A stretch of DNA of 48,946 nucleotides, taken from contig CAZMFO010000004.1 of assembly GCA_964565615.1 (NCBI GenBank), positions 1 to 48,946 of the forward strand, read 5' to 3'. Position 1 is the first letter of the stretch. Every line of letters starts with the position of its first letter. A program made the translations under genes and the position numbers. Source of the DNA: an uncultured Candidatus Saccharibacteria bacterium (lineage in GTDB: Bacteria; Patescibacteriota; Saccharimonadia; Saccharimonadales; JAGQNJ01). Shown one piece after another: positions 9,743 through 32,355 of this stretch. The notes beneath the pieces were generated by a model, which was given only the letters and a program-made list of their open reading frames with translations, searched no databases and was not told where the DNA came from.

Positions 9743-10167
9743 ATCTACAGACGGTTAGTGAGTTTTTAGATACCCAAGAAACATGCGTTCTATCGACTGT
9801 CAGCAGTGAAGGCTGGCCAATGTCGGCGACAGTTGGATTTTCTCATAATGATAAATTGACTATTTTAATAGGGACAAGCAACAAAAGCCGAAAATATCGG
9901 AACCTTTTAAACCACCAAAAGGTGTCAATCGTTATTGGTACAACTGCGCCGAGAACTGTGCAGTATCAGGGAGTTGCCAAAGAAGTTAATGCTGTTGATA
10001 TAGCCAAAAGATTGGCGTTACATTTTAATAAATTGCCCTCTGCCAAAACTTTTTATGATGACCCAGACCAGAGGTATTTTATAATCACTCCAATGTGGTT
10101 ACGGATGACTGATTATTCACAAAAACCGTCAATTTTTGAAACAGAGGAGTTTAATTATGAAAATTAG
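9739..10167 (+). CDS. Pyridoxamine 5'-phosphate oxidase-like FMN-binding protein
   Basis: 'VLSTVS.EGWPMSATV', 'T..KSRKYRNL..HQKVSIVIG' and 'VQYQG.A' split-barrel motifs. Confidence 0.8.
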   Translation: MNLQTVSEFLDTQETCVLSTVSSEGWPMSATVGFSHNDKLTILIGTSNKSRKYRNLLNHQKVSIVIGTTAPRTVQYQGVAKEVNAVDIAKRLALHFNKLPSAKTFYDDPDQRYFIITPMWLRMTDYSQKPSIFETEEFNYEN

Positions 10168-12652
10168 TGTTAACTGGATTAAAGAATTTACTGATATTAA
10201 GCTGTCTGTTGATGAATTAGTTGCAAGAATTGGGGCACAACTTGGCGAAGTTGAAGAAGTAGTTAGTCTTGGAGAGCGGTATCAAGGAATAATTGTTGCC
10301 AAAGTTATGTCCTGCGAAAAACACCCAAATGCCGATAAGTTAAGCGTCTGTTTGCTAGACGACGGCGGGGTAGCAAAAGGCGTAAAGAGAAATGCCAACG
10401 GCTGGGTGCAAGTTGTTTGTGGGGCGCCTAATGTTAGAAAGGGCATTACCGTCGCTTGGCTCCCACCAGGAGTAATTGTGCCTAGCTCGTTTGCTGGAGA
10501 GCAATTTAAGTTAGAGGCAAGAGAACTTCGGGGCGAATTAAGTAACGGTATGATCGCTAGTGGTCAAGAACTGGCTATAAATAACGATCATTCAGGTATT
10601 TTAGTACTAGACAAGCCGGCAAAACCCGGAGATCCGTTTGCCGAGGTGTATCAACTTAATGACTATATTATTGATGTAGAAAATAAGATGTTTACTCATC
10701 GTCCAGATTGTTTTGGTCAGCTTGGAGTGGCTCGTGAAGTTGCTGGGATTACAGGAGTTAGGTTTGTTAGCCCAGATTGGTACTTGAGTGAAATGGACAG
10801 CCTTCAAAACAAATCTACAAAAAAAATAGATATTCAGATAGAAAATCAGATACCAGAGCTTGTACCACGATTTATGGTATTGCCGATATCTGGGGTAAAG
10901 GTAGCACCAGCACCAATTATGGTTCAGAGTTTTTTAAGTCGAGTTGGAATTAATCCAATAAATAACATAGTTGATATTACCAATTTTGTGATGGCGCTTA
11001 CTGCTCAACCAATGCACGCTTATGATTACGATAAGCTGGTGTCTTTGGACAGCACTGCTACCTTTGTAATTAGAAAGCCAAAAAAGGGCGAGAGGATTGC
11101 CTTACTTAATGGTAAAACAGTAGAACCAGACAAGAACTCTATTATGATAGCTTGCAAGAAAGCTCCGCTTGGTATTGGGGGTGTAATGGGTGGTTCTTCT
11201 ACAGAGGTTGATTACCAGACAAAAAACATTGTGTTAGAGTGCGCCAGTTTTGATATGTATGCCATCAGGCGATCTAGTATGGCAAACGGATTGTTTACCG
11301 ATGCAGTTACCAGATTTAGTAAGGGTCAGAGCCAAAGGCAAAATGATCGGATTATGGCTTATGCTTCGGCGTGGGTAAAAAAGTTAGCTGGCGGAGAAGT
11401 AGCCGGTGGCTTGCAAGACACGATAGAAGATATTGGCAAAATAAAGCCAGTGGTGGTTTCTGCAGAATTTATCAATCAAAGACTGGGAGCTAACCTGACT
11501 ATAAAACAGATAACCAAGATATTAAATAATGTTGAATTTTTGGTGGAAGAAAAGAAAGATGAACTGTATATTACAGTACCGTTTTGGCGGACAGATGTAG
11601 AGATTGCCGAAGATGTGGTTGAAGAGGTTGGGCGACTGTATGGTTATGACAATTTACCAATCAGTTTGCCAAATCGAAACTTAAAACCCGCTAGTTATAA
11701 TTCAATTTTGGGAACCAAATCAAAGGCTAGGAGTGTCTTGTCTTCTGCAGGAGCTAACGAGGTGCTGACTTATAGCTTTGTTCACGGTAGGTTGCTAGAA
11801 GCCGTTGGGCAAGATAAAGAACTGGCTTATCAAATAAATAATGCCTTGAGTCCTCAACTTCAATACTATCGGTTAAGTTTGCTCCCCAGTTTGCTTGAAA
11901 AGGTACACTTAAACATTAAGACGGGCTATGGACAGTTTGCTATTTACGAAGTTAATAAAACTCACGATAAATCAAACACTCACGAAGACGGTCTGCCGAT
12001 AGAAGAAGAGCGCTTAGCGTTAGTATTTACAGCTGACGACAAGACCGCAACAGTCTATAATGGGAGTGCCTTTTATCAGGCAAAGCTATACCTAGAGACC
12101 TTGCTTGAGGGCTTTGGTTTAAAAAAGCTTGTCTTTCAGCCGGCCACCTCGCACTCGCCTAAAACAGATACCGGCAAGCAATGTTTAGCACCTTTTGAAG
12201 TATCACGAAGTGCATATTGTAAGACTAGTGATGGGGTGTTGCTTGGGATTGTCGGAGAGGTTAATGCTCAAGCAAAAACTAGCTTAAAGTTACCAAGCTA
12301 TACTGCAGGGTTTGAGTTAAATCTGGGGATGATTGACTCGTATAAGAGCAGTAAAGAGTACCTTCCTCTGGCACGGTTTCCGGATACATCTCAAGACTTA
12401 ACAGTAACAATAGATCGATCAACTTCGCTAGCCGAGCTTGAGCAAGCTATTCACAGATCTCTAACAAAACAATCAACAGAATATGGTTATGTGTGGCGAT
12501 GTAGTGTTATTGATATTTATCAAAAAGAGTCTTCGTCCAGTAAAAATATAACTTTTAAAATTACTTTATCTCACCCAGAGCGGACACTGGTTACAGAAGA
12601 AGTCAATAAGCTAATAGAAGTTATTGCTAAGGCGGGCATACAACCTAAATAG
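10157..12652 (+). CDS. pheT: Phenylalanine--tRNA ligase beta subunit
   Basis: HPNADKL, VVCGAPN, HRPDCFG..GVARE, NNIVDITN, VPFWRTDV....DVVEEVGRLYGY and RFP...QDL motifs. SD (gaggag) precedes ATG 10157. Confidence 0.97.
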   Translation: MKISVNWIKEFTDIKLSVDELVARIGAQLGEVEEVVSLGERYQGIIVAKVMSCEKHPNADKLSVCLLDDGGVAKGVKRNANGWVQVVCGAPNVRKGITVAWLPPGVIVPSSFAGEQFKLEARELRGELSNGMIASGQELAINNDHSGILVLDKPAKPGDPFAEVYQLNDYIIDVENKMFTHRPDCFGQLGVAREVAGITGVRFVSPDWYLSEMDSLQNKSTKKIDIQIENQIPELVPRFMVLPISGVKVAPAPIMVQSFLSRVGINPINNIVDITNFVMALTAQPMHAYDYDKLVSLDSTATFVIRKPKKGERIALLNGKTVEPDKNSIMIACKKAPLGIGGVMGGSSTEVDYQTKNIVLECASFDMYAIRRSSMANGLFTDAVTRFSKGQSQRQNDRIMAYASAWVKKLAGGEVAGGLQDTIEDIGKIKPVVVSAEFINQRLGANLTIKQITKILNNVEFLVEEKKDELYITVPFWRTDVEIAEDVVEEVGRLYGYDNLPISLPNRNLKPASYNSILGTKSKARSVLSSAGANEVLTYSFVHGRLLEAVGQDKELAYQINNALSPQLQYYRLSLLPSLLEKVHLNIKTGYGQFAIYEVNKTHDKSNTHEDGLPIEEERLALVFTADDKTATVYNGSAFYQAKLYLETLLEGFGLKKLVFQPATSHSPKTDTGKQCLAPFEVSRSAYCKTSDGVLLGIVGEVNAQAKTSLKLPSYTAGFELNLGMIDSYKSSKEYLPLARFPDTSQDLTVTIDRSTSLAELEQAIHRSLTKQSTEYGYVWRCSVIDIYQKESSSSKNITFKITLSHPERTLVTEEVNKLIEVIAKAGIQPK

Positions 12653-12695
12653 TTATAATTATTACAAGCATCAAAAAGCCTAGTAAGTTAGTCAT

Positions 12696-12725
12696 TTGAC
12701 AGGCAAATTACTCCTGTGCTAACAT
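12696..12725 (+). promoter_or_regulatory. Sigma70-type promoter of the phage-tail-like cassette
   Basis: TTGACA (12696-12701), 18-nt spacer ending in TGC, then TAACAT (12720-12725). Confidence 0.55.
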
Positions 12726-12776
12726 AAAGCTAATACTTATTTAGATAGCAGGGGTACATAATAAACTAATACATCT

Positions 12777-13337
12777 ATGGCTAGACTACCAATACCGGGA
12801 CAAGACGGAGGAGTATGGGGCAACATTCTTAATGAATATCTATCTGTATCTCACGAATCAGATGGCACTATTAAACCAAGTGCTATACCACCATCTTCCG
12901 GAGCTACAGGCGCCACAGGAGTTCAAGGAGCTACAGGTGCACAAGGCCCAGCTGGCCCTCAAGGAGCAACCGGAAGCTTAGGAGTAACGGGCGCAACAGG
13001 TGCAACCGGCATTGCTGGCCCCCAAGGAGCAACAGGAGTACAGGGCGCTACCGGTTCTGGATCTACTGGAGCTACAGGAGTTCAAGGCTCAACCGGAGTA
13101 CAGGGCGCAACCGGCCCTCAAGGCGCTACCGGCCCGGGAGTAATCTCTGGTGGTACTACTGGTCAAGTATTAGCTAAGGCTTCAAACCTAGATAACGATA
13201 CGGTATGGACAACCGTTCCTAGCAATCCGGTAACATCAGTCAACGGCAAAACTGGCCCAACTGTTGTACTGACCGCACCCGATGTAGGAGCCCAACCCGC
13301 AGGTTATTCAAGATCATTTTTATTAGGAGGTATGTAG
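12777..13337 (+). CDS. Collagen-like fibre protein with phage tail-fibre-type motifs
   Basis: 17+9 Gly-X-Y triplets, then '[17 protein letters not shown]' and '[19 protein letters not shown]' motifs that I recognise from phage tail fibres. Confidence 0.75.
12900..13139 (+). repeat. Collagen-like Gly-X-Y repeat (GAT/GVQ/GPQ-rich)
   Basis: Residues 42-121: 17 triplets, a GS interruption, then 9 triplets. Confidence 0.95.
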
Positions 13338-13338
13338 T

Positions 13339-13668
13339 ATGGCAACAACCGTAAAAGTATTAGGGCAATCAGCTCCGTCAGCAAACACAGACACCACTCT
13401 GTATACAGTACCGGCATCTACTTCAACAATTGCCAGTTCGGTAATTGTATCTAACAGAGGAGCTACTAGTGCTACATTTAGAGTAGCTGTTCGCGTTGGG
13501 GGTGCCCCTTTAGCGAACCAGCATTACATCTTTTATGACATAGCCATTCCTGCTAAAGATTCTTTTGTCGCCACAATTGGAGGAACCTTCTCGGCTGGCG
13601 ATGTCATTACCGTTAGAGCATCAACAGCAGACCTTTCGTTTAATCTATTTGGGGAAGAAACTGCGTGA
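13339..13668 (+). CDS. Phage-type small beta-rich protein
   Basis: SD aggagg. 'MATTVKVLGQSAPSA.TDTTLYTVPAST.TI.SS..VSNRG..ATFRVAVR...YDI.IPA.DS...G.T..AGDVITVRAS...SFNLFGEE' resembles a small protein family I recall from tailed-phage structural regions. Confidence 0.7.
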   Translation: MATTVKVLGQSAPSANTDTTLYTVPASTSTIASSVIVSNRGATSATFRVAVRVGGAPLANQHYIFYDIAIPAKDSFVATIGGTFSAGDVITVRASTADLSFNLFGEETA

Positions 13669-14966
13669 GCATAAGGTGGGCATCAGATACGCCACAAAGC
13701 ACTCGGCTTGTTGGGCAACCTCAAAGTAGTACTAATGATGACTCTTGGGTAAGACCAGCCGATTGGCTTACATTACCAACTGTTAACATAGGTGACGAAA
13801 AGGTGGTGCTGCTGGTCGCTGTGTGGGACCTGTCGCACAACTGGTTGGCGTTCGCCTGTACGGGCGCTTACACGGTGGATTGGGGGGACGGTTCCGCACC
13901 GGCGAACGTCGCGTCGGGTGTGAAGGCGTCACATGATTTCGCGTGGGCTGATATCGATTCGGGCACTTTGAGTGTGCATGGGTATCGGCAGGCGATCGTG
14001 ACGATCACCCCGCAAGCCGGGCAGCATCTGACGTCGTTGTCGTTCTCTCAGCCGCATGTGGGTGCCGGGGGTGGGGTGTCGAACGGGACGTTGGAAGCCG
14101 TGTTGGCGGTCCCGTATGCGACATCGTTCACGTTCTACAACAGTGCCACGGTGGCGATGGACAACCGCTATTTGGAGCATGTGTCGATCGTGGACGCACC
14201 GTCGCTGATAACGGCGTACCAGATGTTCGCGGGCATGAATGCATTGCAGAAGGTGGATGCACCGGATGCGACAGGCGCATGGACCAGCACAATCACCAAC
14301 TTCTCCCAGATGTTCAGCAACTGTTCTTCCCTGCGTGAGGCCCCGTTGTTGAACACGTCCGCGGGAACCACCTTCTCCCAGATGTTCCGCAACTGTTATT
14401 CGTTGCGTGAGGTTCCGGCGTTGAACACCACAGCGGGAACCAACTTCTCCGGCATGTTCAACAGCTGTTCTTCCCTACGTGAGGTCCCGTTGTTGAACAC
14501 CGCCGCAGGAACCAACTTCTCCGAAATGTTCCGCAGCTGTTATTCCCTGCGCGAGGTTCCGGCGTTGATCACCGCTGCGGGAACCAACTTCGTCAACATG
14601 TTCAGCGGCTGTTCTTCTCTGCGTGAGGTCCCGGCGTTTAACACGTCCGCGGGAACCAACTTCTCCGGCATGTTCTACGCCTGTTCTTCCCTGCGCGAGG
14701 TCCCGTTGTTGAACACCGCAGCGGGAACCAGCTTCTCCCAGATGTTCGGCAATTGCAACAGTTTGCATTCTGCGCCGCTCGCAGGCACCCGATACAGCAT
14801 CAACTACACCAACTGCTACCTCGACGCCGCCGACCTCGACGCCATCTACACAGCGTTGGGCACCGCAGCCGGAGCACAAACAATCACCGTCACAGGCAAC
14901 CCCGGTATCGGCAGCGACGACCCGTCAATAGCGACCGCCAAAGGCTGGACCGTAACCGGCTCGTAA
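13665..14966 (+). CDS. BspA/DUF285-like leucine-rich-repeat protein, phage-tail-associated type
   Basis: N-terminal WVRPADWLTLP, PKD-like 'YTVDWGDG', 24-aa repeats (MF.xCxSLREVP..NT.AGTNF), C-terminal 'TITVTGNPG...DPSIATAKGWTVTG'. GTGA overlap with the upstream gene. Confidence 0.8.
   Translation: MSIRWASDTPQSTRLVGQPQSSTNDDSWVRPADWLTLPTVNIGDEKVVLLVAVWDLSHNWLAFACTGAYTVDWGDGSAPANVASGVKASHDFAWADIDSGTLSVHGYRQAIVTITPQAGQHLTSLSFSQPHVGAGGGVSNGTLEAVLAVPYATSFTFYNSATVAMDNRYLEHVSIVDAPSLITAYQMFAGMNALQKVDAPDATGAWTSTITNFSQMFSNCSSLREAPLLNTSAGTTFSQMFRNCYSLREVPALNTTAGTNFSGMFNSCSSLREVPLLNTAAGTNFSEMFRSCYSLREVPALITAAGTNFVNMFSGCSSLREVPAFNTSAGTNFSGMFYACSSLREVPLLNTAAGTSFSQMFGNCNSLHSAPLAGTRYSINYTNCYLDAADLDAIYTALGTAAGAQTITVTGNPGIGSDDPSIATAKGWTVTGS
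14301..14762 (+). repeat. 72-bp (24-aa) tandem repeat, 6 full copies plus 1 partial
   Basis: Units start at 14301, 14373, 14445, 14517, 14589, 14661 and 14733 (exact 72-bp period). Confidence 0.97.
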
Positions 14967-14996
14967 CAGCGAATTAGTTTAGTACAATACAGGCTA

Positions 14997-15024
14997 TTGA
15001 CATTATAAAAAAAGTTCTTATAAT
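14997..15024 (+). promoter_or_regulatory. Consensus sigma70 promoter with no downstream CDS
   Basis: Exact TTGACA (14997-15002), 16-nt spacer, exact TATAAT (15019-15024). Predicted +1 near 15031. Confidence 0.8.
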
Positions 15025-15030
15025 CAGATT

Positions 15031-15556
15031 AGTTTGGTAGAGTCTTAATTTAGATTCCTAAACTGTACATTGACAGATGTAAGATACACATTAGGCAATG
15101 ACTACAGGTATTACAAATGTAATGATTGTAGCCATTGTCTAATAATTTTAGCTATAGATCTAAAGTCTGGAGATTCTGTAGTTCCACCGCTACAGAAAAC
15201 ATACGGAACCGCTCCTCCGTATGTCTCCAGCGCAAGTTGGGTGTCTGCCGTTTTTGGCAGAACCGCCTCCCCGCCAGCGGTTGTGGGAATCACGCACCCA
15301 ACTTGCAAGTTCTGGAACCCCATCAAGAGAGTCAACCAAATAGGTTGAGCCATTTAGGTAGGTTCCAAATAGATCGTGGGCCCCACGGCTACTGGTTCGC
15401 CAGTTCCGCCTTCCACCCATAAGCCGTGGGGTCCACATAGGCGTAAATTGCGCTAAAATGCAAAAATTTGTTGAGAGGCGTTTTTTAAGTTGAGGACTTC
15501 TTGTTCTCCTTTTCGCTACTCCAAATTACTATCTTACATCTGTCATCTTTTTCTTT
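15031..15556 (+). ncRNA. Candidate large structured non-coding RNA (about 525 nt), family not recognised
   Basis: Promoter directly upstream. 5' hairpin starts at the predicted +1. Perfect 16-bp closing helix 15071-15086/15530-15545, more than 12 nested helices, UUCG tetraloop, G-U pairs favouring the + strand, GC about 60% in the core versus about 23% in the flank, U-tract 15546-15556. Confidence 0.8.
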
Positions 15557-15767
15557 AGTTTGATATTAGCTCACGAATTGTCGTGGTTTAATATAAAACT
15601 ATTGTTCTTAGCAAGATGAGAAAATAACCAGATTGTCTTTACCAAAGAGGTCTTACGATTTGTGGTTGTTTTGGTGGATCACTAGCCTTCTAAAAAACAT
15701 CAAAAACAATCGGCTCTTGGCTACCCGACTTTTTGTTTGATTAAAGAGGGTGTAAACTATTGTTAAA

Positions 15768-17534
15768 GTGAAGTACCTAATCAATATCTTAAAACTGTCA
15801 TCTTCTCTATGGAGATACTACTTAGCCATTAGCCTATTAAGTGTTTTGGTGGCCCTATCTGGGCTGGTTACTCCTTTGCTTTCTGGGCGAGCAATTGATC
15901 TATTAAGGTCTGGCACAGATAGTTTATCAACCCTGCTGGTGATTTCTGTCTTGATATTTTTAGCGGACATATTTTCTACTTTGGTGTCTAACTATGGAGG
16001 CTATTTAGGTGATGTGATGACATCTAAGCTAGAGCGTATTTTGAGTACACGGTACTACCAGCACTTGCTACAGTTGCCACAGACCTATTACGATAGCGAA
16101 CTTTCTGGCAAGATAATAAATCGCTTAAATAGGTCCATTACTCAAATAGGCAATTTTGTCCATATGTGGTGTAATAACTTTTTGCAGTTTGTTTTTAGCA
16201 CCATTTTGTCATTAGGCATTATTGCTTACTTTAGCTGGCCAATAGCTTTACTTTTGTTTTTGCTGTACCCAATTTATGTATTTATGACCATTAAAACTAG
16301 CGGAAAGTGGTTAAAATATCAGGCAAAAATTAACAAAAATTGGGATATCGCCTCTGGCCGATTTGCCGAGAGTATTACCCAGATTAAGGTAGTAAAAAGT
16401 TTTGTTCGCGAGGCTTCTGAACTGCGACATTTTGACAAATACTACAAAAAAATTACCAGTATTGTTTACCCACAGTCTAGACTTTGGCATAACCGCGATA
16501 TTCAGCGTCGCTTGATATTGAATATCATTTTTTTGGGAGTGTACGCGTTGATTTTTTATCAGGCTACCCAAAATCAATATACGCCCGGGCAGGCTGTAAC
16601 CTTAATTTTGTATGCTATGCAAATTAGAATTCCAATTTTTACCATTAGTTTTTTGGTAGATAACACACAGCGAGCTATTGCCGATAGCAAAGATTATTTT
16701 GATGTTATGGCTATTAAGTCGCAAATTTTAGACCTACCAAATGCGACCACGCTTAAAGTTAGCTCTGGAGGCATTGAGTTTAAGGATGTAAGCTTCTCGT
16801 ACGGCAACGCACTAGTTTTAAACAAAATCTCTCTTAAAATTAAGCCCTCATCAAAAATTGCTCTGGTTGGCGAGAGTGGAGAGGGTAAAACCACTTTAAC
16901 AAATTTGATAATGCGTTTTTACGAACCGAACTCGGGACAAATCATCATTGATGGGCAAGATATAGCTACGGTAACACAAAGTAGTTTACGACAGAACATT
17001 GGTGCGGTTTTTCAGGAATCGGCATTATTTAGTGGAACGATAAAAGAGAACATTTCATACGGTAGGCCAAACGCTAAACAAAAAGATATAGAAGAAGCAG
17101 CCAAAATGGCAAATGCACATCAGTTTATTAGCGAACTAAAAAAGGGTTACGATACAGAGATAGGCGAGCGTGGCTTAAAGCTCTCTGGCGGGCAAAAACA
17201 ACGAATAGCTATTGCTAGAGCACTTCTTAAAGACGCCCCGATACTAATTCTTGATGAGGCGACCAGTAGCTTAGATAGCAAGAGTGAGCGAATGGTGCAA
17301 GAAGCCCTTGAGAGGCTGATGGAGAACAGGACAACCATTGTTGTGGCTCATCGTTTAAGTACTATACAAAATGTTGATACCATAGTTACGCTCAAGAAAG
17401 GCAAGATAGACGAGGTTGGCACACCAGCGGAGCTAGCAAAATCGGGCGGTATCTATTCTCGCTTACTAGAGTTGCAACGCGAGGGTGTTTCTTCTGGCAA
17501 AGAGCGTTTACAAAAGTTTGATATCGCCAGCTAG
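15768..17534 (+). CDS. ABC exporter, fused permease/ATPase (MsbA/multidrug-like)
   Basis: N-terminal TM domain, GESGEGKT, LSGGQKQR, ILILDEATSSLD and AHRLST. Confidence 0.93.
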   Translation: MKYLINILKLSSSLWRYYLAISLLSVLVALSGLVTPLLSGRAIDLLRSGTDSLSTLLVISVLIFLADIFSTLVSNYGGYLGDVMTSKLERILSTRYYQHLLQLPQTYYDSELSGKIINRLNRSITQIGNFVHMWCNNFLQFVFSTILSLGIIAYFSWPIALLLFLLYPIYVFMTIKTSGKWLKYQAKINKNWDIASGRFAESITQIKVVKSFVREASELRHFDKYYKKITSIVYPQSRLWHNRDIQRRLILNIIFLGVYALIFYQATQNQYTPGQAVTLILYAMQIRIPIFTISFLVDNTQRAIADSKDYFDVMAIKSQILDLPNATTLKVSSGGIEFKDVSFSYGNALVLNKISLKIKPSSKIALVGESGEGKTTLTNLIMRFYEPNSGQIIIDGQDIATVTQSSLRQNIGAVFQESALFSGTIKENISYGRPNAKQKDIEEAAKMANAHQFISELKKGYDTEIGERGLKLSGGQKQRIAIARALLKDAPILILDEATSSLDSKSERMVQEALERLMENRTTIVVAHRLSTIQNVDTIVTLKKGKIDEVGTPAELAKSGGIYSRLLELQREGVSSGKERLQKFDIAS

Positions 17535-17591
17535 AGAGTCTTAAAGTTTGGTTTGTGGGATTGTTGATGATTATCGTATATACTAATCCTT

Positions 17592-18047
17592 ATGAGCAGA
17601 AGATCAGTCAGGGCTATCGTTGTTAAAGACAATAATTTGTTAGTAATGTTTCGTAATAAGTTTGGCGTCAAGTATGTAACGCTAGTCGGAGGGACAGTAG
17701 AAATGGGTGAGTCATTAGAGCAGTCTGTCCTTAGAGAGGTGCAAGAAGAGGCAAGTATTCAGGTGGCTAACCCACGATTAGTGATGATAGATCACGCCGA
17801 TTTTTACGGCGACCAGTATGTGTATTATTGCGATTATTTGTCGGGCGAGCCACAGTTATCAGCACAATCGCCAGAGTTAGCAATTCATAAAATGGGCAAA
17901 AACCTTTACGAACCGGGTTGGTTACCGCTGTCCGAGTTATCTAAAGTGCCGTTCCTTTCAAAAGAACTACAAGAAGCAATTATTAAAGCTACTACTTCTG
18001 GGTGGTCAACCGAGATCGTTGAGTTTTCTAGTAAACGAAATGTCTAA
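17592..18047 (+). CDS. NUDIX hydrolase
   Basis: Nudix box GGTVEMGESLEQSVLREVQEEASI. Confidence 0.92.
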   Translation: MSRRSVRAIVVKDNNLLVMFRNKFGVKYVTLVGGTVEMGESLEQSVLREVQEEASIQVANPRLVMIDHADFYGDQYVYYCDYLSGEPQLSAQSPELAIHKMGKNLYEPGWLPLSELSKVPFLSKELQEAIIKATTSGWSTEIVEFSSKRNV

Positions 18048-18139
18048 TGCGGTAAATAATACCTCATAATTCTACTTGTTTGTTTTGTTTTAGAGGTGGA
18101 CCTTTGCTATACTTTAAAACACTACAAAAGGAGGAATAA

Positions 18140-18685
18140 GTGGCACAAACAACACAACGAGCGTTTGCATTGAGCCTAGCAATTTTGTTTATTATAACGA
18201 CAGTTGGTTTTAGTGGTTATGTAGTCTGGGAGATGTTTAAGGGTAAGGACAGCCAATCCCAGTCTATTGAACAAGAACTAGCCAATAGTGCAAAAGAAAC
18301 TAAGCAAGAGGAGGATCCATTGAAAGGGCAACCATTAGATAACTTTACGCCAATGCCAGAGGTTACCGAACTTAAGATTGAAGATACAAAAATAGGTGAG
18401 GGTGCAGAGGCAAAACCAGAGTCTAGTGTAACCGTACACTACACAGGGGCAATTGCCAGTACTGGTAAGATTTTTGAAAGCTCCCTAGGGCGTGGTGAAC
18501 CAGTTAGTTTTCCCCTAGCTGGGGTAATTGCTGGCTGGAAAGAGGGTATTCCCGGTATGAAGGAGGGTGGCAAACGCCGTTTGATTATCCCAGCAGAAAA
18601 GGCTTACGGAGAACAATCGCCATCACCTGATATTCCACCAAACTCTGACTTAGTATTTGATGTAGAGTTGATCAAGGTGCAATAG
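18140..18685 (+). CDS. FKBP-type peptidyl-prolyl isomerase, N-terminally membrane anchored
   Basis: VTVHYTG, VIAGWKEGI.GMKEGGKRRLIIP...AYG, IPPNSDLVFDVEL. SD aggagg. Confidence 0.95.
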   Translation: MAQTTQRAFALSLAILFIITTVGFSGYVVWEMFKGKDSQSQSIEQELANSAKETKQEEDPLKGQPLDNFTPMPEVTELKIEDTKIGEGAEAKPESSVTVHYTGAIASTGKIFESSLGRGEPVSFPLAGVIAGWKEGIPGMKEGGKRRLIIPAEKAYGEQSPSPDIPPNSDLVFDVELIKVQ

Positions 18686-18691
18686 CAAAAA

Positions 18692-18740
18692 ACACAACAT
18701 ATAGCGTCTTGACTTAAACCATAAGCACTACATATAATGA
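18692..18740. promoter_or_regulatory. Tandem NrdR-like boxes overlapping a sigma70 promoter
   Basis: acacaacatatagcgt (18692-18707; 14/16 to acaCwAtATaTwGtgt) and gcactacatataatga (18725-18740), 33 bp apart. Promoter TTGACT 18709-18714 / TATAAT 18733-18738. Confidence 0.65.
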
Positions 18741-18855
18741 TTTATGTACCATAAACGGACATTAATTTTAAAATAAACAACCGACCAGACTACCGTATGG
18801 GAGCCTTCTATGAGAGCAGAAGGGGTGGTCAAGTCGCTAAGAAGGGAGTCATACA

Positions 18856-19104
18856 ATGGCAAAAAATATTACGATCTATACAACCAACACCTGCGGTTAT
18901 TGCACTATGGTTAAAAAGTTCTTGACGGCAAAAGGGCAAACCTACGAAGAGGTAAATCTAGACCAAGACCCAGCACGCCAACAAGAGGCTTTGGCGATTA
19001 GTGGTGCCTTAACTGTGCCGGTAACAGTTGTTACTAAAGAAGACGACTCTAAAGAAGTCGTTGTTGGCTATAACCTTGCTAAACTTGCACCAGCATTAGG
19101 TTGA
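18856..19104 (+). CDS. NrdH-like glutaredoxin
   Basis: ITIYTTNTCGYC, TVPVT, VVGYN. NrdR-like boxes upstream and trxB downstream. Confidence 0.88.
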   Translation: MAKNITIYTTNTCGYCTMVKKFLTAKGQTYEEVNLDQDPARQQEALAISGALTVPVTVVTKEDDSKEVVVGYNLAKLAPALG

Positions 19105-19175
19105 GCTCGCTTGTTGTTAAGATTGGAACTCTCTGTGCCAAGAGGTATTGATAGATAAGTATTAGGAGGAGAAAT

Positions 19176-20102
19176 ATGACAGAAAAGACCATTGATGTAG
19201 TAATGATAGGTGCTGGCCCAGCCTCATTGAGCGCCTCTATTTATACCACCCGTGAGGATATCAAAACGGTTTTATACGAAAAGGGAGTAATTGGCGGGCT
19301 AGCGGCCATTACAGATTGGGTAGATAATTATCCGGGTTTTCCAAAGGGCATTGCAGGGCTTGATTTAGCAGAAGATTTGCGTCAGCAGGCAGAACGTTTC
19401 GGGGCAGAGATTAGATTGGGAGAGGTTTTTAGGATTTCTCTTAATAAAGATGGAACAAAGACCCTAGCAACTACCGACGGGGATATTACGGCAAAAGTAG
19501 TTTTGATTGCTACAGGTAGTGATTATAAAAAACTTGGTATTCCGGGTGAGCAAGAATATTATGGGCGTGGAGTACACTATTGTGCGACCTGCGATGGAGC
19601 ATTTTACCGAGACAAACCCCTTGTGGTCGTTGGTGGTGGCAATTCGGCTGTTCAAGAGGCTCTATTTTTGACTAGGTTTGCAAGTAAGATTGATATGCTA
19701 ATAAGAAGTGAGTTGCGAGCCTCTGATGTTTTAATAAAAGAGCTCAAGGCTAACCCTAAAATTACTGTACACACAGGGACAACTACCGATGAAATTATTG
19801 CACAAGATAACAAAGTGATTAAAGTTGTTGGTTCTAAAGCCGGAAAAAAACAGGAGTTTCCGACGGATGGAGTTTTTGTCTTTATTGGTTTACTGCCCAA
19901 TACAGGATTTTTAAAAGATAGCGATATAAAGCTCGACGATATCGGCCTGATTGTAACTGATCAGCATCTTCAAACAAGTATGAAGGGGGTGTTTTCTGCT
20001 GGTGATGTAAGAAGTGGGGCAACTATGCAGATTGCTTCTGCGGTTGGCGAAGGGGCAACAGCAGCTTTACGTATTCGGGAGTATCTAGAGGGCAAGCTGT
20101 AA
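19176..20102 (+). CDS. trxB: Thioredoxin reductase
   Basis: IGAGPA, NYPGF, GVHYCATCDG, VVGGGNSAVQEA and FSAGDVR motifs. Confidence 0.96.
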   Translation: MTEKTIDVVMIGAGPASLSASIYTTREDIKTVLYEKGVIGGLAAITDWVDNYPGFPKGIAGLDLAEDLRQQAERFGAEIRLGEVFRISLNKDGTKTLATTDGDITAKVVLIATGSDYKKLGIPGEQEYYGRGVHYCATCDGAFYRDKPLVVVGGGNSAVQEALFLTRFASKIDMLIRSELRASDVLIKELKANPKITVHTGTTTDEIIAQDNKVIKVVGSKAGKKQEFPTDGVFVFIGLLPNTGFLKDSDIKLDDIGLIVTDQHLQTSMKGVFSAGDVRSGATMQIASAVGEGATAALRIREYLEGKL

Positions 20103-20106
20103 ATCT

Positions 20107-20769
20107 TTAATATCCCGAAAAGGAGTCGGTAACAATTTGGTTTTTAGGAATGTTGTTGTGTTGGAGAGTATCGGATACATTTGCAACAAATGTCGGCGAG
20201 CCAGAAATATACGTTAAGGCGTTTGGCTTTTGATTATTGAGTCTCAACAATTCTTGTAGGATATTTTTGTCATTGTCGGCAACAGAGTATTCTGCTTTAA
20301 AGTTATCAAAAAGTTGATGTTCAATAATGTCATCACTAGATCGAACAGAGTAGAGTATCTTAATATTACTCGAATTGTGGCTATCGGCTAACCACTTAAC
20401 AATACTACGAACAGGAGTAATCCCAACTCCGTTAGCCACAAAAATTACCGGCTTTGCTTTGTCTATGGGTAGCACAAAATCACCCATCGGCTCTGTGTAG
20501 GTAATTTCTTGATTTGGTTTAAGTTCCAGAAGAGCTTGTTTAAAAGTTGAAGCATTTGTTTTAATTCGAGTAGTAATTGCCAGTTGGTTTTCTGTTGGCG
20601 AAGAGTAGACCGTAAACCAGCGTTTTGTTCCTCGACTGTCTGGGTGGTTATGTGGCAATGAAACTTCGATATATTGGCCGGGCACATTGTTGATTGGTTT
20701 TTCTGTATCAAACCAAAAGGAATAGATTTCGTTGGTGAGTTGATGGATTTTGTTTAACCTAGCCCTCAT
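20107..20769 (-). CDS. FAD/NAD(P)-binding oxidoreductase (ferredoxin reductase-like)
   Basis: PGQY, RWFT..SSP, GDFVLP, ANGVGITPVRS and YISGSP motifs. Confidence 0.85.
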   Translation of the reverse strand: MRARLNKIHQLTNEIYSFWFDTEKPINNVPGQYIEVSLPHNHPDSRGTKRWFTVYSSPTENQLAITTRIKTNASTFKQALLELKPNQEITYTEPMGDFVLPIDKAKPVIFVANGVGITPVRSIVKWLADSHNSSNIKILYSVRSSDDIIEHQLFDNFKAEYSVADNDKNILQELLRLNNQKPNALTYISGSPTFVANVSDTLQHNNIPKNQIVTDSFSGY

Positions 20770-26624: not shown

Positions 26625-27503
26625 ATGGGTGGCCAACAAACATATACTACTCAATCTCTAAATCAAATCGCTAATTCGGTTAGAGAAGACATTATTAAAA
26701 TGCTAGAAAATGCTGGTAGTGGGCATAGTGCCGGTCCGCTTGGGTTAGCTGATATTTTTACAGCCTTATATTTTGACATTTTGAAACACAACCCCAAAAA
26801 ACCAGACTGGGATGAGCGCGATATTTTATTGTTAAGCAATGGTCATTGTGTACCTGTGCAGTATGCAACTATGGCTCACGCTGGCTATTTTGACAAAAAA
26901 GAGCTTATGACATTGCGACAATTTGGTTCCAGATTGCAAGGGCATCCAGAAAGGACAAGATTGCCAGGACTAGAAAATACTAGCGGACCATTAGGTTGTG
27001 GCCTAAGCCAAGCATGCGGTATGTCTTTGGCAATGCAAATGAATCATGATACGCACCGTTGGATTTATGTAGTGATGGGCGATGGCGAACTAGACGAAGG
27101 CAATGTGTGGGAGGCTGGAATGCTAGCTAGCAAATATAACTTGCACAACATAGTTGGTATTATTGATCGTAATAATATACAGATTGATGGTCCAACAGAG
27201 GAAGTTATGCCCTTAGAAGACCTGCGAGCTAAGTGGGAGGCTTTTGGTTGGCATGTACAAGAAATTGATGGGCACAATATAGAGGCAGTTATTGATGCTT
27301 GTTCGATGGCGCGAGCAATTACCGAGAAACCGAGTATGATAATTGCACATACTATACCCGGTAAGGGAGTTGATTTTATGGAATATAACTATAAATGGCA
27401 TGGTGGCGCACCTGGGCAAGGAGTGCCAAATAAAGAACAAGCCAGAGAAGCACTAAAAGAGTTGAGAACGTTGGGAGGAAAAATCAGGAGTGAACACCAA
27501 TGA
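26625..27503 (+). CDS. Transketolase, N-terminal (TPP-binding) subunit
   Basis: GSGHSAG, LSNGH, LQGHP, GPLG.GLS, GDGELDEG..WEA TPP motif. Confidence 0.95.
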   Translation: MGGQQTYTTQSLNQIANSVREDIIKMLENAGSGHSAGPLGLADIFTALYFDILKHNPKKPDWDERDILLLSNGHCVPVQYATMAHAGYFDKKELMTLRQFGSRLQGHPERTRLPGLENTSGPLGCGLSQACGMSLAMQMNHDTHRWIYVVMGDGELDEGNVWEAGMLASKYNLHNIVGIIDRNNIQIDGPTEEVMPLEDLRAKWEAFGWHVQEIDGHNIEAVIDACSMARAITEKPSMIIAHTIPGKGVDFMEYNYKWHGGAPGQGVPNKEQAREALKELRTLGGKIRSEHQ

Positions 27504-28492
27504 GTGTGCTTGATCTCCACCTCGTTCATAAAAGCTGGGGTAAATCTAAGGTTGAGTTTGAGCCTAATCGCAAAGGATTTGGTAGGGGTTTGCTCGAGGC
27601 AGGCAAACACAATGACAACGTTGTAGCTTGTTGTGCTGACTTAACCGAATCAACCCAGATGCACTTATTCAGAGATGCCTTTCCCGAACGTTTTGTTGAG
27701 ATTGGTGTAGCAGAACAAAATCTAGTAACTGTAGGTTCGGGCTTGGCATCAATGGGTAAGATACCATTTGTAAGTAGCTATGCGGCATTTAGTCCGGGGC
27801 GAAACTGGGAGCAAATACGTACTACTATTTGTTTAAATGACCAGCCAGTACGCATTGTTGGTTCTCATGCAGGGGTTAGTGTTGGACCAGATGGCGCAAC
27901 TCATCAGATGTTAGAAGACATTGCTCTTATGCGTGCTTTGCCAAATATGACTGTTATTTCTCCATCCGACAGTATTGAGGCCGAAAAGGCCACAATTGCT
28001 CTGGCTAAATACAACAAACCAGCTTACTTGCGATTAGCGCGAGAAGCTGTACCAATAATATCTACTAAAGATACGCCATTTGAAATCGGCAAAGCATACG
28101 TATATGACAGGGGTGAGGATATAACTATTGTAGCAACCGGGACCATGACGTATCACGCTCTCGTAGCATCAGACATTCTTTATAAAGAAGGGATTGAGGC
28201 AGAGGTGATCCATTGCCCGACTATTAAGCCCCTTGATGGTCTAACAATTTTATCTAGCATAAAAAAGACTCGTTGTGTGGTTACTGTAGAGGAGCACCAA
28301 ACAACTGGCGGACTAGGTGGTGCAATAGCAGAATTTATTGGCGAGCATTTGCCGGTACCACTTAGGCGAGTGGGAGTTCACGATCGATTTGGAGAGTCTG
28401 GCAAACCAGATGAGTTGTTTGAGTATCTAGGGCTAACTGCCAAGCATATTGCTCTTGTGGCCCATCAATGTTATGAAAGCAGGAGGAACTAG
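27500..28492 (+). CDS. Transketolase, C-terminal subunit
   Basis: ADLTEST, GVAEQNL, GPDGATHQ..ED, YLRLAR, EEH...GGLG. Confidence 0.95.
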   Translation: MSVLDLHLVHKSWGKSKVEFEPNRKGFGRGLLEAGKHNDNVVACCADLTESTQMHLFRDAFPERFVEIGVAEQNLVTVGSGLASMGKIPFVSSYAAFSPGRNWEQIRTTICLNDQPVRIVGSHAGVSVGPDGATHQMLEDIALMRALPNMTVISPSDSIEAEKATIALAKYNKPAYLRLAREAVPIISTKDTPFEIGKAYVYDRGEDITIVATGTMTYHALVASDILYKEGIEAEVIHCPTIKPLDGLTILSSIKKTRCVVTVEEHQTTGGLGGAIAEFIGEHLPVPLRRVGVHDRFGESGKPDELFEYLGLTAKHIALVAHQCYESRRN

Positions 28493-28495
28493 CTT

Positions 28496-29407
28496 ATGTC
28501 GTTAACCTTAAGGCAAATGAGGCAGAACTGTGCAGAGGCACGGATTTTAATGGAACGATCTAGGAGGGGCAAGTTTGCCGTAGGGGCCTTTAATCTAGAT
28601 AATCAAGAAACATTAATAGCTGTAGCTAGGGCGGCCAAAAAAACAAAAGCACCGGTTTTGGTAGAGGTTAGTAAGGGTGAGGTAGATGCTTTAGGGCTTG
28701 ACAATGTCAGAGATATGGTTGACAACTATAAAGCGGAGTATGGCGTTGAGATGTATATCAACCTAGATCACAGTCCTAGTGTCGAGGATGCTTTAGACGG
28801 CATAGAAGCTGGTTTTGAGTTCATACACATAGACGTTTCTCAGGCTAACCACGAGGCTAGCGACGAAGAAATTATTAGTTCTACAAAAGAGGTTGTAAAC
28901 TATGCCAGACTAACCGGTGCATTAGTAGAGAGTGAGCCACATTATTTTGGCGGGAGTTCTAATTTGCATACAGAAAAGATTGATTACGCCGAAATTAAAA
29001 AGACTTTTAGTACTCCTCTTGGTGCAAGATCGTTTGTTAACGCTACGGGCATAGATACTTTTGCTGTGGCGATTGGTAATTTGCATGGTAAATATCCTGT
29101 TCCAAAAAAGCTTGATCTAGATTTACTTAAAGAAATTCGTAAAGAGCTTGATTGCAACATTAGTCTGCATGGCGGTAGTGGCACGCCCGGTCGTTACTTT
29201 GAGGAAGCGGCTCGTATTGGGGTCAGTAAGATAAACATTAATTCTGATATGCGGGTCGCCTATCGAAATACTCTAGAAAAGGTTCTTGCCGAGAACAAAG
29301 ACGAGTATGCTGTAGTTAAGTTGATGGGGCAGGTGATTACGGTTGTTCAGAAGGTGGTAGAGGCCAAGATTGATGCTTTTGGTTCTGCCGGAAAGGCACA
29401 AGTTTAG
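28496..29407 (+). CDS. fba: Class II fructose-bisphosphate aldolase
   Basis: GAFN, NLDH, AIGNLHGKY, SLHGGSG, KININSD. Confidence 0.92.
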   Translation: MSLTLRQMRQNCAEARILMERSRRGKFAVGAFNLDNQETLIAVARAAKKTKAPVLVEVSKGEVDALGLDNVRDMVDNYKAEYGVEMYINLDHSPSVEDALDGIEAGFEFIHIDVSQANHEASDEEIISSTKEVVNYARLTGALVESEPHYFGGSSNLHTEKIDYAEIKKTFSTPLGARSFVNATGIDTFAVAIGNLHGKYPVPKKLDLDLLKEIRKELDCNISLHGGSGTPGRYFEEAARIGVSKININSDMRVAYRNTLEKVLAENKDEYAVVKLMGQVITVVQKVVEAKIDAFGSAGKAQV

Positions 29408-29416
29408 GGTTTTCAG

Positions 29417-30382
29417 TTGAAGAGGGTGCATATAGTTTCTATTGGAGCAGCCGTGCAGGATGTCTTTTTGCAAGGGCGAATTTTTAAACCAGTTAAGGAA
29501 AAAGATGGAGACTTAGTAAACGAGTTTGATCTAGGTACCAAGAACGATATTGAGGGTATTGTCCATAGTGTTGGTGGTGGAGCAACGAACGCTAGCGTAA
29601 CATTTGCTCGGCTGGGATTTAATAGTTGGTATATGGGGCGTATCGGAAACGATATTCCCGGCAGAGTGATATTAGATACCCTGGCCGACGAAAAGGTCAA
29701 TACCAGCTTAGTGTGGACTGCCAAAGATGTCGGCACAGGTTATTCGACTCTATTATTAGCACCGTCTGGGGAGAGAACAATTTTAACATATAGAGGTGCT
29801 TCGTCAGAGTATAAATTGTCTGTGGCAAGATTTAAGTCGGTCAAGCCTGATTGGTTTTATATTAGCTCTTTATCTGGCGACATTGATGCACTAGAGGTTA
29901 TTGTTGATTATGCTCGCAAAAAAAAGATAAAAATAGCTATTAACCCCGGAAAGGGCGAGCTAAAACAGCATTCCAGATTTAAAAAACTTCTCCCGTCATT
30001 TGACATATTAAGTATAAATAAAGAGGAGATAGAAGAGCTATTTGGTACAGCAGATTTATTTAGTTTGATGAAACGAGCTCATCAAGATGTTGATATTGTG
30101 GTAGTAACCGATGGGGCCAGAGGCTCTTATGTGATAAACGATAATCAGATTTATAAAGCTGGTATGTATAAAGATGTCCCAGTAATTGATCGGACAGGAG
30201 CGGGGGACGCTTTTTGTAGTGGTTTTGTAGCAATGATTGCTAGGGGGGAACCCATTGAGAAGGCCATTGTTTATGGAAGTGCTAATTCTACAAGTGTAGT
30301 AGGGCAAATCGGAGCAAAGGCCGGTATTCTAAAATCAAGTAATAACCTTGATGCAATGAAGATAATAGTAAAGTCAATTTAA
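29417..30382 (+). CDS. PfkB-family carbohydrate kinase
   Basis: GGGATNASV..ARLG, NPG, NKEE, VVTDG.RG, DRTGAGDAF. Confidence 0.93.
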   Translation: MKRVHIVSIGAAVQDVFLQGRIFKPVKEKDGDLVNEFDLGTKNDIEGIVHSVGGGATNASVTFARLGFNSWYMGRIGNDIPGRVILDTLADEKVNTSLVWTAKDVGTGYSTLLLAPSGERTILTYRGASSEYKLSVARFKSVKPDWFYISSLSGDIDALEVIVDYARKKKIKIAINPGKGELKQHSRFKKLLPSFDILSINKEEIEELFGTADLFSLMKRAHQDVDIVVVTDGARGSYVINDNQIYKAGMYKDVPVIDRTGAGDAFCSGFVAMIARGEPIEKAIVYGSANSTSVVGQIGAKAGILKSSNNLDAMKIIVKSI

Positions 30383-30428
30383 TTGTTTGTTTTGCTGGTA
30401 TAAGTTGCTTATGGTAATCTATTTATAG

Positions 30429-31667: not shown

Positions 31668-32329
31668 GCTACTTATTTAGACCAGACCCTCATCCTTCGG
31701 CAAAAACAACAAACGATGGGCATCACCTAAGTTTTACAATTTGTGTATCTGGAGCCGCTGGAGGTAAGACAGTTGAAGAATCTGCCGATCTAGCCGAAGC
31801 ACTTGGTCGTTCAATTGCCAAACATGGGCACATATTAACTACTGGAGCAACGGTTGGTCTGCCGTTTTATGCCGCAAAAGGCGCAAAGTCTGCGGGCGGT
31901 ATGAGCATTGGGTTTTCTCCGGCTGGTAGTCTAAGAGAACACTTAAAAAAATATCGTTTGCCTTTTGAGTTTTTTGATTTCATTAACTTTACCGGAATGC
32001 AATATGTTGGCCGAGATTTGTATTTAGTTCAGTCTAGTGATGCATTGATTACTGTAGGTGGAAGATTTGGGAGCTTGCACGAGTTTATTACTGGGTTAGA
32101 GGCTGGCAAGCCTTGTGGGGTTTTGGTTGGTAGTGGTGGTGCTTCGGATATTATTCCCGATTTAATGAAGAGCCTATCTCCTCCCAAGAAGTCAATAGTA
32201 GTTTACGATACTGATCCTAATGCCCTTGTAGAAAAGATGGAAGATATTCTAGAAGAACAATATAGCGATATTTACGAAGCTCATAATTCTAACATCGACT
32301 ATAGTCGTGCTCAAAAACCAACCGGTTAA
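31664..32329 (+). CDS. LOG/SLOG-family nucleotide-binding protein (TIGR00725-like)
   Basis: [25 protein letters not shown], '[11 protein letters not shown]', [11 protein letters not shown]. Confidence 0.8.
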
Positions 32330-32355
32330 CAGATGAGTACGATATACTAATTGAT

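Follow-up and report, generated by a model that had tools for sequence, protein, structure and literature searches.

The cassette described here lies in a 48,946-nt stretch of DNA from an uncultured Candidatus Saccharibacteria bacterium (contig CAZMFO010000004.1); the whole of this stretch is called the window below. Between pheT and the gene for an ATP-binding cassette (ABC) exporter there are three intact, tightly coupled open reading frames (ORFs) on the + strand, g1, g2 and g3, which span 12777-14966. The g1 gene (12777-13337, +, 186 aa) specifies a collagen fibre, g2 (13339-13668, +, 109 aa) a jelly-roll protein, and g3 (13665-14966, +, 433 aa, GTG start) a leucine-rich repeat (LRR) protein of the DUF285/BspA type. 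A 1-nt gap (TAG t ATG) separates g1 from g2, a GGAGGT in the final codons of g1 doubles as the Shine-Dalgarno sequence of g2, and g2 overlaps g3 by 4 nt (GTGA). A sigma70-type promoter stands upstream at 12696-12725 (+) with TTGACA, a spacing of 18 nt and TG-n-TAACAT; it gave 10 of 12 matches in a consensus scan and has an extended -10 TG. At the orthologous locus of a lineage that is 70-79% identical (L170), the -10 block TGCTAACATAAAGCTAATACTTA is identical, with TTGAC(A/C) as the -35 element 18 nt upstream. Promoter-like sites were not enriched region-wide (5 observed, 4.0 +/- 2.3 expected).

The g1 protein has three parts. Its first 40 or so residues (12777-12896, +; residues 1-42 by match) form an N-terminal module, hereafter the N-module, with the head pattern MARLPxPG..WGDILNEYL and the motif ..H..DG.IK; its G+C content at third codon positions (GC3) is 0.20, and the module is the head of a large protein family whose members are stand-alone and fibre- or spike-like. 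The collagen-like shaft (12900-13139, +; Pfam PF01391, E 7e-11) consists of 18 + 8 Gly-X-Y triplets with a 2-residue break. Its high overall GC is due to Gly, Ala and Pro codons, since GC3 in the shaft is merely 0.32. The C-terminal part (13140-13337, +) carries tail-fibre motifs, ends in SFLLGGM and the stop codon, and is colinear to about residue 178 with P0412, the closest N-module protein.

No Pfam family above threshold was found for g2. Its AlphaFold2 (AF2) model is an eight-stranded jelly-roll with a predicted local distance difference test (pLDDT) score of 94.6, and g2 is the proposed connector between shaft and tip. The model matched many phage proteins of ~105-120 aa in BFVD at template modelling (TM) scores of 0.83-0.95, some of them annotated as virion structural protein and others being domains of tail-fibre-like proteins. 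PHROG tail-fibre families matched at ~1e-8. A fold search of the PDB gave generic jelly-rolls only (TM about 0.5), and a PDB sequence search gave nothing useful.

The alignment of 34 sequences of the g3 family shows a variable leader, a conserved beta-sandwich, 24-residue repeats and a conserved C-terminal cap. The leader (codons 1-42, 13665-13790, +) is host-like in composition (GC3 0.31). Its start, MSIRW.., is common to the homologues, R30, W34 and other residues are invariant, and the motif WVRPADWLTLP at 13746-13778 occurs family-wide as WVRPxDWLxLP; pLDDT in the AF2 model is below 50 for residues 1-24. The beta-sandwich with its TVDWGDG motif (13791-14198, +) is conserved across the 34 homologues and marks the start of a foreign segment of high GC3 (0.77). 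In the model it covers residues ~43-178, with strands between 46 and 177 and pLDDT mostly above 90. Eight BspA/DUF285 LRR units of 24 aa (72 nt; repeat family D1) follow at 14202-14777 (+; PF03382, PF13306), and a cap (..QTITVTGNPG..IATAKGWTVTGS) that is highly conserved in the family closes the protein and includes the stop codon (14778-14966, +). Pfam support was clear for DUF285 (E 2e-18, 66.5 bits against a cut-off of 25) and for LRR_5 (E 5e-10, 39.7 bits against 27.7). The whole model (pLDDT 89.5) is a beta-sandwich followed by an LRR solenoid. In the PDB, the fold search gave generic LRR ectodomains only, and no relative of the beta-sandwich was found by sequence. The only repeats within 12400-15900 were the collagen and the 72-nt LRR units.

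This anatomy agrees in most respects with a preliminary description made from the sequence, without database searches. The three coupled genes with their 1-nt gap and GTGA overlap are borne out by the ORFs and the sequence, and the sigma70 promoter by the consensus scan and its conservation in L170. The collagen-like fibre with tail-fibre motifs is confirmed by PF01391 and the FLLGGM-type end, and the small beta-rich phage-type protein by the g2 model with its BFVD and PHROG matches. For g3, the LRR and the C-terminal cap stood, but the PKD-like motif found no Pfam or PDB sequence support, and what the AF2 model shows there is a beta-sandwich that carries a TVDWGDG motif.

The g2 protein belongs to a phage virion-protein family with at least 6,728 clusters at 90% identity. 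All 120 listed members are 105-110 aa long, and among the matches listed the 119 relatives (own entry excluded) are 58-72% identical to g2. An alignment of 26 members has 29 invariant columns. There were at least 511 loci in IMG/VR (80 listed relatives, 54-68% identical to g2), and a pattern-limited scan of 185,579 species-representative genomes gave 19 g2-like loci in scattered phyla. Cultured phages with the family are rare: Pontimonas phage phiPsal1 (gp021, in the module gp019-021), P-SSM2 and P-SSM5. The phiPsal1 gp021 protein is 48% identical to g2 over 100% of the query, its gene follows the tape-measure and tail-fibre genes, and its GenBank note records matches to a virion structural protein of Pelagibacter phage HTVC010P.

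We surveyed the neighbourhoods of 104 g2-like genes from phage and metagenome loci. A downstream gene on the same strand was present at 96 of the 104 loci, spaced by -4..+3 nt in 78 of the 96. This gene is variable, with DUF285 at 16/104 loci and a small collagen-containing protein at many; several phages carry two pairs of g2-like and tip genes in tandem. The upstream ORFs range from 42 to about 1,100 aa, and 85 of 95 end in FLLMGA, FLLGGM or LLLIGG. The SFLLGGM end of g1 is a tail of this same hydrophobic-LMG type. A relative 67% identical to g2 lies on siphovirus-like contigs after tail-tube, tape-measure and M15-peptidase genes, with the spacing of the window: an upstream gene, a 1-nt gap, the g2-like gene, a 4-nt overlap and a DUF285 gene. 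One of these contigs also bears WhiB and RusA genes. Modules of a fibre ending in FLLMGA, a g2-like protein and a tip are abundant in uncultured aquatic and soil Caudoviricetes. In gene order, spacing, fibre tail and DUF285 tip the window cassette matches such modules, and by these features the end of g1, g2 and g3 reproduce a common phage fibre design of predicted shaft end, connector and exchangeable tip. It differs from them in having no other phage genes nearby, in a g1 head that matches no PHROG family and has no confirmed match in a pattern-limited IMG/VR scan, in the orthology of g1 to a chromosomal gene of related bacteria, and in the host-like codons of g1, g2 and the g3 leader.

GC3 breaks sharply within g3. 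Host genes have values of 0.33-0.41, g1 0.20-0.32, g2 0.31 and codons 1-42 of g3 0.31, and codons 43-433 have 0.77; in 20-codon windows the change from 0.20-0.25 to 0.80-0.85 falls around codon 40-47. Among the fetched loci, the best full-length g3 relative (52% identity) lies on a 69%-GC contig with a WhiB gene, and two further close homologues both lie on phage-like contigs. WhiB is typical of Actinobacteria and their phages.

A soil metagenome run, X19, contains a diverged copy of the whole cassette with a near-identical g3. Identity to the window is 82% in the g1 N-module (12775-12857) and 81% across the g1 end and g2 (13223-13693), but 99.7% at 13707-14045 of g3 (1 difference in 339 nt), 99% at 14075-14272 and about 94% in the g3 repeats (14465-14950). 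The limits of high similarity lie near 13700 and 14950, and past 14950 the 2,880-nt contig is unlike the window downstream. With g1 and g2 at 81-82% and g3 at 99.7%, the comparison indicates that g3 moved as a unit between diverged cassettes, and very recently. The repeat number of g3 also varies, with one 72-nt unit more in run X3 and one fewer in X12. A further cassette, L112, has a g1-like gene with the same N-module and the same ..FLLGGM end, a g2-like gene (70% identical), a tip of 281 aa other than DUF285, an 89-aa ORF and a leftover DUF285 cap, and its ABC exporter is 53% identical to that of the window. The leftover cap reads as the footprint of an earlier swap.

P0412, which is annotated as collagen-like, is found in CP060231.1 (876,243 nt; GCA_023898625.1; locus L170), in JAXLZW010000001.1 (939,581 nt) and in an ENA contig. 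The synteny of L170, L171 and L172 with the window runs for about 25 kb, between MauE/Zip and GAPDH, and nucleotide identity there is 70-79%. All three loci have, between pheT and the ABC exporter, a single 233-aa fibre gene and then a 75-aa ORF, without g2 or g3. P0412 shows 72% identity to g1 and stays colinear up to about residue 178; beyond that point P0412 runs into a tip of its own (..HSHDATDIT..FLRGDQTW..) and g1 ends in FLLGGM. An orthologous fibre gene at the same site in relatives indicates that the pheT-ABC fibre locus is old and that what differs between the lineages is the tip. GC3 of the relative's fibre gene is 0.25-0.28 up to codon 165 and 0.72 from codon 166, and ~800 nt of 59-70% GC DNA follow. 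Within this stretch (10500-11355 in L170, likewise in L171 and L172) we noted ~425 nt of non-coding DNA of 59-70% GC past FLRGDQTW and then the high-GC 75-aa ORF, which has a coiled-coil-like end; in L172 an Arg-rich 203-aa ORF, seemingly out-of-frame, overlaps the stretch. The GC-rich DNA after the relatives' fibre gene suggests a decayed high-GC tip gene.

A word-index search with the 42-aa N-module gave no candidates, and an exhaustive HMMER search of 1.84 billion representatives was used instead. It returned 4,515 representative proteins at E<=1e-3. In the best 150 of these, 68-894 aa long, the module starts at residue 1 in 139 and collagen is present in 55. Bodies at 52 metagenome loci were collagen, pectate-lyase beta-helix, GDSL esterase, DUF2961, DUF5907, fn3 or lectin; they match PHROG tail-fibre and tailspike families, and a second gene (e.g. 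a ConA-like lectin) is often tightly coupled. The N-module itself matched no PHROG family, and a pattern-limited scan of IMG/VR, a weak negative, gave 37 pattern matches of which 0 were confirmed.

Several N-module loci have cellular settings: beside valS/tsaD and a Mur ligase gene (L151), directly after tuf (L132), and with RNR/tatC in a high-GC genome. Neighbours were scanned at six other loci, 2-4 genes at each, and several had no family. At L147, whose synteny with the window covers 27500-34314 (41-74% protein identity), a 627-aa N-module/GDSL gene stands between tkt and fba with a promoter-like TTGACA/TATATA upstream; the tkt-fba gap in the window is 3 nt. The window locus, L170-L172, L132, L147 and L151 all have the gene, singly or in a two-gene unit, in housekeeping surroundings of small genomes. 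Two contigs of 675-975 kb bear two N-module genes each, and L146 bears three. The three in L146 (6386-9004, Ga0172380_10004321) lie within 8 kb on a high-GC cellular contig (GC3 about 0.8), and one of them is directly 3' of tatC; the module has no twin-arginine motif and the adjacency may be chance.

By tblastn the N-module was also found in five Streptomyces phages (six INPHARED records), at the protein N-terminus and with 52-67% identity: BRock gp186, GiJojo gp34, gp41 of LuckySocke and Alone3, and pSt2308. These matches overturn the idea that the module is purely cellular. In BRock (KX925554.1; L166) and GiJojo (PP725410.1; L167) the gene lies inside a tRNA array and not in the tail block. 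In these ~113-kb phages it adjoins genes for a Ro-like RNA-binding protein and a peptidase, and the start annotated for BRock gp186, which overlaps a tRNA-Lys gene, has probably been placed too far upstream.

Around the cassette we found no phage structural block of tape-measure, tail-tube and lysis genes. The Pfam families obtained for 40 further window ORFs were cellular and mostly housekeeping; some of the 40 matched none, and no phage hallmark appeared. The families include pheS, DUF5674, PNPOx, inorganic pyrophosphatase, GAPDH and enzymes of the pentose phosphate pathway and glycolysis, and further UvrB, GatA/GatB, DnaE and a PilB-type ATPase. The cassette is flanked by pheT (10136-12652) on one side and by ABC exporter, NUDIX, FKBP, glutaredoxin and TrxR genes on the other; the names of pheT and of the genes at 15768-20102 come from Pfam hits on the near-identical contig L003 and the syntenic L170-L172. 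The window has no tRNA genes and no Rfam match at the gathering score. Protein clusters of >=90% identity are named Candidatus Saccharibacteria, and those for CP060231.1 Candidatus Nomurabacteria, and the label of the organism is uncertain to that extent.

GC climbs from ~40% to 55-62% within the cassette, as it would if a high-GC phage or actinobacterial fragment had been misjoined into a low-GC contig, and short contigs do break at the repeats, one of them having been binned into a Microthrixaceae metagenome-assembled genome (MAG). Such a misjoining is vanishingly improbable. A 48.8-kb Logan contig from a 2019 sludge run has 0 differences from 11500-16500, and contigs of other studies span pheT-g1-g2 (12121-13562, a 2024 bioreactor run) and the end of g3 to 20145 (14647-20145, a 2025 run). 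The junctions are covered as well by contigs of low depth from groundwater and biofilm runs. All three ORFs are intact, identical junctions occur in at least 8 runs from several studies, a search for an empty site across 8 runs found none, and the composition break falls within an ORF that is intact and has a leader conserved in its family. The chimeric contig that the preliminary description had allowed for is refuted by these independent assemblies. The contig so binned, JADLFH010000106.1 (L002/L013; 1,589 nt), corresponds to window 12903-14489 at 98.6% and was deposited in a Microthrixaceae MAG, isolate SJ36. It is most likely a mis-binned GC-rich fragment, and we did not take it as evidence of origin; had co-abundance been used for the binning, it could point to the host. 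All but one of the differences between the window and the short contigs L001 and L002 cluster in the LRR repeats at the contig ends and are probably repeat mis-assembly.

We favour, with moderate confidence, the reading that the cassette is a resident, inherited and domesticated modular binding fibre with tip swapping in Saccharibacteria-like Patescibacteria, and not a prophage fragment. Its starting points are the established anatomy, homologies, orthologous locus, composition break and recent tip exchange; the assembly order g1-g2-g3, the formation of a trimer and a binding role that serves the cell are what we infer from them. A single promoter would give one translationally coupled message for the three genes. 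The g1 protein would combine the lineage-typical 40-residue N-module with a collagen triple-helix shaft, for which a trimer is expected, and its FLLGGM tail would dock to g2, as in many phage fibres. In turn g2 would carry g3, whose beta-sandwich and eight BspA-type LRR units would be the ligand-binding tip. Historically, a phage module of connector plus tip would have displaced the original tip of an ancestral one-gene fibre still kept in the relatives. Recombination at the conserved ends of the tip gene would now swap that gene as a whole among diverged cassettes, and the repeat number of g3 would drift through 72-nt slippage. The product would be a re-targetable binding or attachment fibre of the cell, most plausibly directed towards a host bacterium. 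Retention of the cassette is indicated by the orthologous gene and promoter at the same site, by the host-like GC3 of g1, g2 and the g3 leader and by the membership of g1 in a stand-alone fibre family.

The preliminary description had spoken of a domesticated phage receptor-binding module with no prophage around it. The second point is upheld by the Pfam scan of the 40 ORFs and the recorded flank hits. The first holds for g2, g3 and the end of g1, whose relatives are phage-type for g2 and g3, but not for the N-module and collagen, which belong to a resident lineage gene; the best-hit check it had proposed places P0412, the closest N-module protein to g1, in related bacterial genomes. It had also asked whether the pheT-adjacent locus varies among relatives, and in the relatives covered it does so in its tip but not by presence or absence.

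Several observations weigh against this reading. The three proteins g1, g2 and g3 lack a signal peptide (Sec or Tat), a lipobox, a sortase motif and a transmembrane segment; the N-termini are hydrophilic with a maximum Kyte-Doolittle(19) value of 1.57, which agrees with the earlier remark that Sec-type signal peptides are lacking. This leaves a putative surface display with no known route. Since the N-module also occurs in Streptomyces phages, it could serve for attachment to virions instead of as a cell anchor. None of the best 150 N-module proteins has an FLLMGA-type tail (0/150), and two or three cassettes only (the window, L112 and X19) join the N-module with g2. The sequences are near-clonal and permit no test of the ratio of nonsynonymous to synonymous substitution (dN/dS), and a search for RNA runs gave runs of unknown type only, the depth of X2 being flat and DNA-like. 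In run X2 (SRR36479851, 2025) an element with terminal inverted repeats (TIR) is inserted at 12767/12768, between the promoter and the g1 start codon, and in run X11 a 1-nt G insertion at 14015 would shift the frame of g3 in a low-depth (2.6x) contig. If the latter is not an error of sequencing or assembly, it is a disrupted allele. The cassette may thus be dispensable, silenced or decaying in some populations.

The strongest alternative to a resident fibre is that the proteins belong to a particle encoded elsewhere, the N-module being a virion or baseplate attachment domain and the scattered N-module genes, this cassette among them, coding for receptor-binding proteins supplied in trans to a resident prophage, a tailocin, a gene transfer agent (GTA)-like particle or a satellite of this lineage, with assembly in the cytoplasm and release by lysis. 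This is unlikely in our judgement, even if the absence of export signals from g1-g3 is what virion parts would be expected to show, the N-module heads proteins in Streptomyces phages, relatives of g2 include annotated virion structural proteins, and every N-module body is tail-fibre- or tailspike-like. No tail, baseplate, capsid or lysis gene lies among the 40 window ORFs or all called genes of the 20-kb orthologous loci, the N-module gene of BRock and GiJojo sits in a tRNA array and not in a tail block, and the module has no PHROG family and no confirmed match in the pattern-limited IMG/VR scan. Each examined gene, moreover, has its own promoter-like site among housekeeping genes. The same neighbourhood speaks against a cryptic prophage, a candidate we rejected on finding no flanking phage genes, integrase, tRNA, notable flanking direct repeats or downstream protein remnants. 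A diversity-generating retroelement target was also rejected; there was no reverse transcriptase in the 40 Pfam-scanned ORFs or recorded flank hits, and no template repeat in 12400-15900.

A functionless phage leftover that is decaying but still intact has a precedent in the tail-fibre genes stf-tfa, which survive in the Escherichia coli cryptic prophages e14 and Rac, and the GC3 of 0.77 marks the tip as foreign and hence recent. The X2 insertion between promoter and g1, the possible X11 frameshift and the ~425 nt of GC-rich non-coding DNA after the relatives' short tip, which resembles a decayed gene, fit this account too. We nonetheless regard it as quite improbable. Species only 70-79% identical have a fibre gene with its promoter at this very site, and the orthologous one-gene fibre at the pheT-ABC site of complete relative genomes (CP060231.1 and others) tells against the prophage remnant that the preliminary description had named as a counter-case. 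Synonymous sites of g1, g2 and the g3 leader are host-like, the N-module is conserved across thousands of intact proteins, the flanks have neither phage genes nor an integrase nor direct repeats of att type, and downstream there are no protein-level remnants of phage genes. The tip was also replaced precisely, gene for gene, with frame and coupling kept. Very improbable, finally, is an anti-phage decoy or poison fibre, whose parts would enter or titrate phages that use the FLLMGA-g2 system and leave their progeny mis-targeted or defective. The interchangeability of g2 and the FLLGGM tail within a very common phage fibre system, and the cytoplasmic character of the proteins as far as sequence shows it, would suit such a role. 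The flanking genes, however, are by Pfam only cellular and mostly housekeeping, the large N-module family with enzymatic and lectin bodies would be left unexplained, and no g2-bearing phage of this lineage was identified.

The DNA on both sides of the cassette carries further elements. Both X2 contigs break at TA and run into inverted ends TAGCCCCCGCAAAACAAATT... and ...AATTTGTTTTGCGGGGACTA, which are also seen at bases 1-28 of L001. The element looks like an IS630/mariner-type insertion sequence or a miniature inverted-repeat transposable element (MITE) with TA duplication, and would uncouple g1 from its promoter. In run X3 (2024 bioreactor) two contigs overlap by 8 nt at 14982-14989, just past the g3 stop, and run into inverted ends GGTTCACTAAACTAAAACGGAACA... 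and ...TGTTCCATGTTAGTTGACTGAACC. A TIR element distinct from that of X2 has been inserted here, with what appears to be an 8-bp target duplication. The insertions in X2 and X3 mark the intergenic DNA around the cassette as an insertion hot spot.

Downstream of g3, window 14997-15545 contains a perfect TTGACA-16-TATAAT promoter (14997-15024), a conserved leader hairpin and a GC-rich segment of ~480 nt that a 10-bp stem closes (15071-15095 / 15521-15545; GACAGAUGUA/UACAUCUGUC). Compared with shuffled sequences the segment folds with z = -10.8 in the window and -10.6 in a relative. The structured segment lies at about 11395-11885 in L170, L171 adds a 65-nt insertion, and one relative has an extra perfect hairpin. 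In the 70-79% identical species it again lies between fibre locus and ABC exporter and has conserved ends but a different interior. No Rfam family matched even at E<=1. We regard 14997-15545 as a candidate, either for a structured RNA of a new kind or for a long, structured leader of the ABC exporter gene. Its conserved position makes a mobile MITE unlikely.

Chromosomal fibre genes whose receptor-binding end is swapped by recombination are familiar from stf-tfa of E. coli e14 and Rac and from the R-type pyocin fibres. Those genes lie within recognisable prophage or tailocin clusters, whereas the window locus has none, holds a conserved position and has a lineage-specific base. The collagen-like tail fibres of enterohaemorrhagic E. 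coli (EHEC) prophages reportedly share with g1 a Gly-X-Y shaft between non-collagen parts that trimerise or bind; as far as checked, they have neither the N-module nor the FLLGGM end, and no coupling to g2 and g3. Like the BspA-like/DUF285 surface proteins (Tannerella BspA, Mycoplasma DUF285), g3 passes the DUF285 and LRR_5 thresholds and has a predicted LRR solenoid. It differs from them in having no secretion or anchoring signal, in its phage-family leader, beta-sandwich and cap, and in that its closest relatives lie in phage tail-gene blocks.

The closest functional analogue would be the mosaic adhesive trimer (MAT) fibres of Bdellovibrio bacteriovorus (Caulton et al. 2024, PMC10769870). 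These are 21 phage-like fibres encoded on the chromosome and located at the surface of the predator; each joins an invariant N-terminal domain to a swappable tip, and prey recognition by the tips has been proposed or shown. In both cases a bacterium lives on bacteria, and a conserved base is combined with diverse tips, as the window N-module is with its exchanged tip; the g2 model also weakly resembles the tip domain of Bd2133 (TM 0.53). The MAT fibres are single polypeptides with a signal peptide and a beta-rich N-domain of ~130 aa (PMC10769870), whereas the window fibre has no signal peptide, an unrelated N-module of ~40 aa, three genes and a phage connector. Surface location has been shown for MATs and is putative for the window fibre.

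Saccharibacteria are naturally competent and grow on Actinobacteria (PMC10633639). Competence and actinobacterial hosts together offer, as a speculation, a plausible route for high-GC tip DNA. A bolder form of the resident-fibre reading, which we hold to be rather doubtful, is that patescibacterial epibionts have a fibre and spike family of their own, with the N-module as its mark, and re-target these fibres with tips captured from phages of their high-GC actinobacterial hosts. Natural competence and recombination at the fibre junctions would then lead to fibres that use the same surface receptors as those phages. If so, the cassette would be a determinant of epibiont host range and the N-module a new export or cell-surface anchoring signal.

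Host choice and attachment of ultrasmall episymbiotic bacteria are largely unknown. In the literature searched, the leads are limited to type IV pili and a few adhesins (PMC10633639; bioRxiv 10.1101/2024.11.25.624915), and our literature search found no paper that links phage-type fibres to Saccharibacteria or such a cassette to Patescibacteria. A chromosomal fibre of this kind, with its conserved base and exchanged tip, would be a concrete and testable candidate for a host-range determinant. The analysis also defines two very large uncharacterised families, the g2 connector and the N-module, and an N-module at Met1 provides a simple genomic marker for such fibres in metagenomes. If the domesticated-fibre reading is correct, the re-use of phage receptor-binding hardware by a bacterium living on bacteria, known from the MAT fibres, would have a second and independent example in this cassette.

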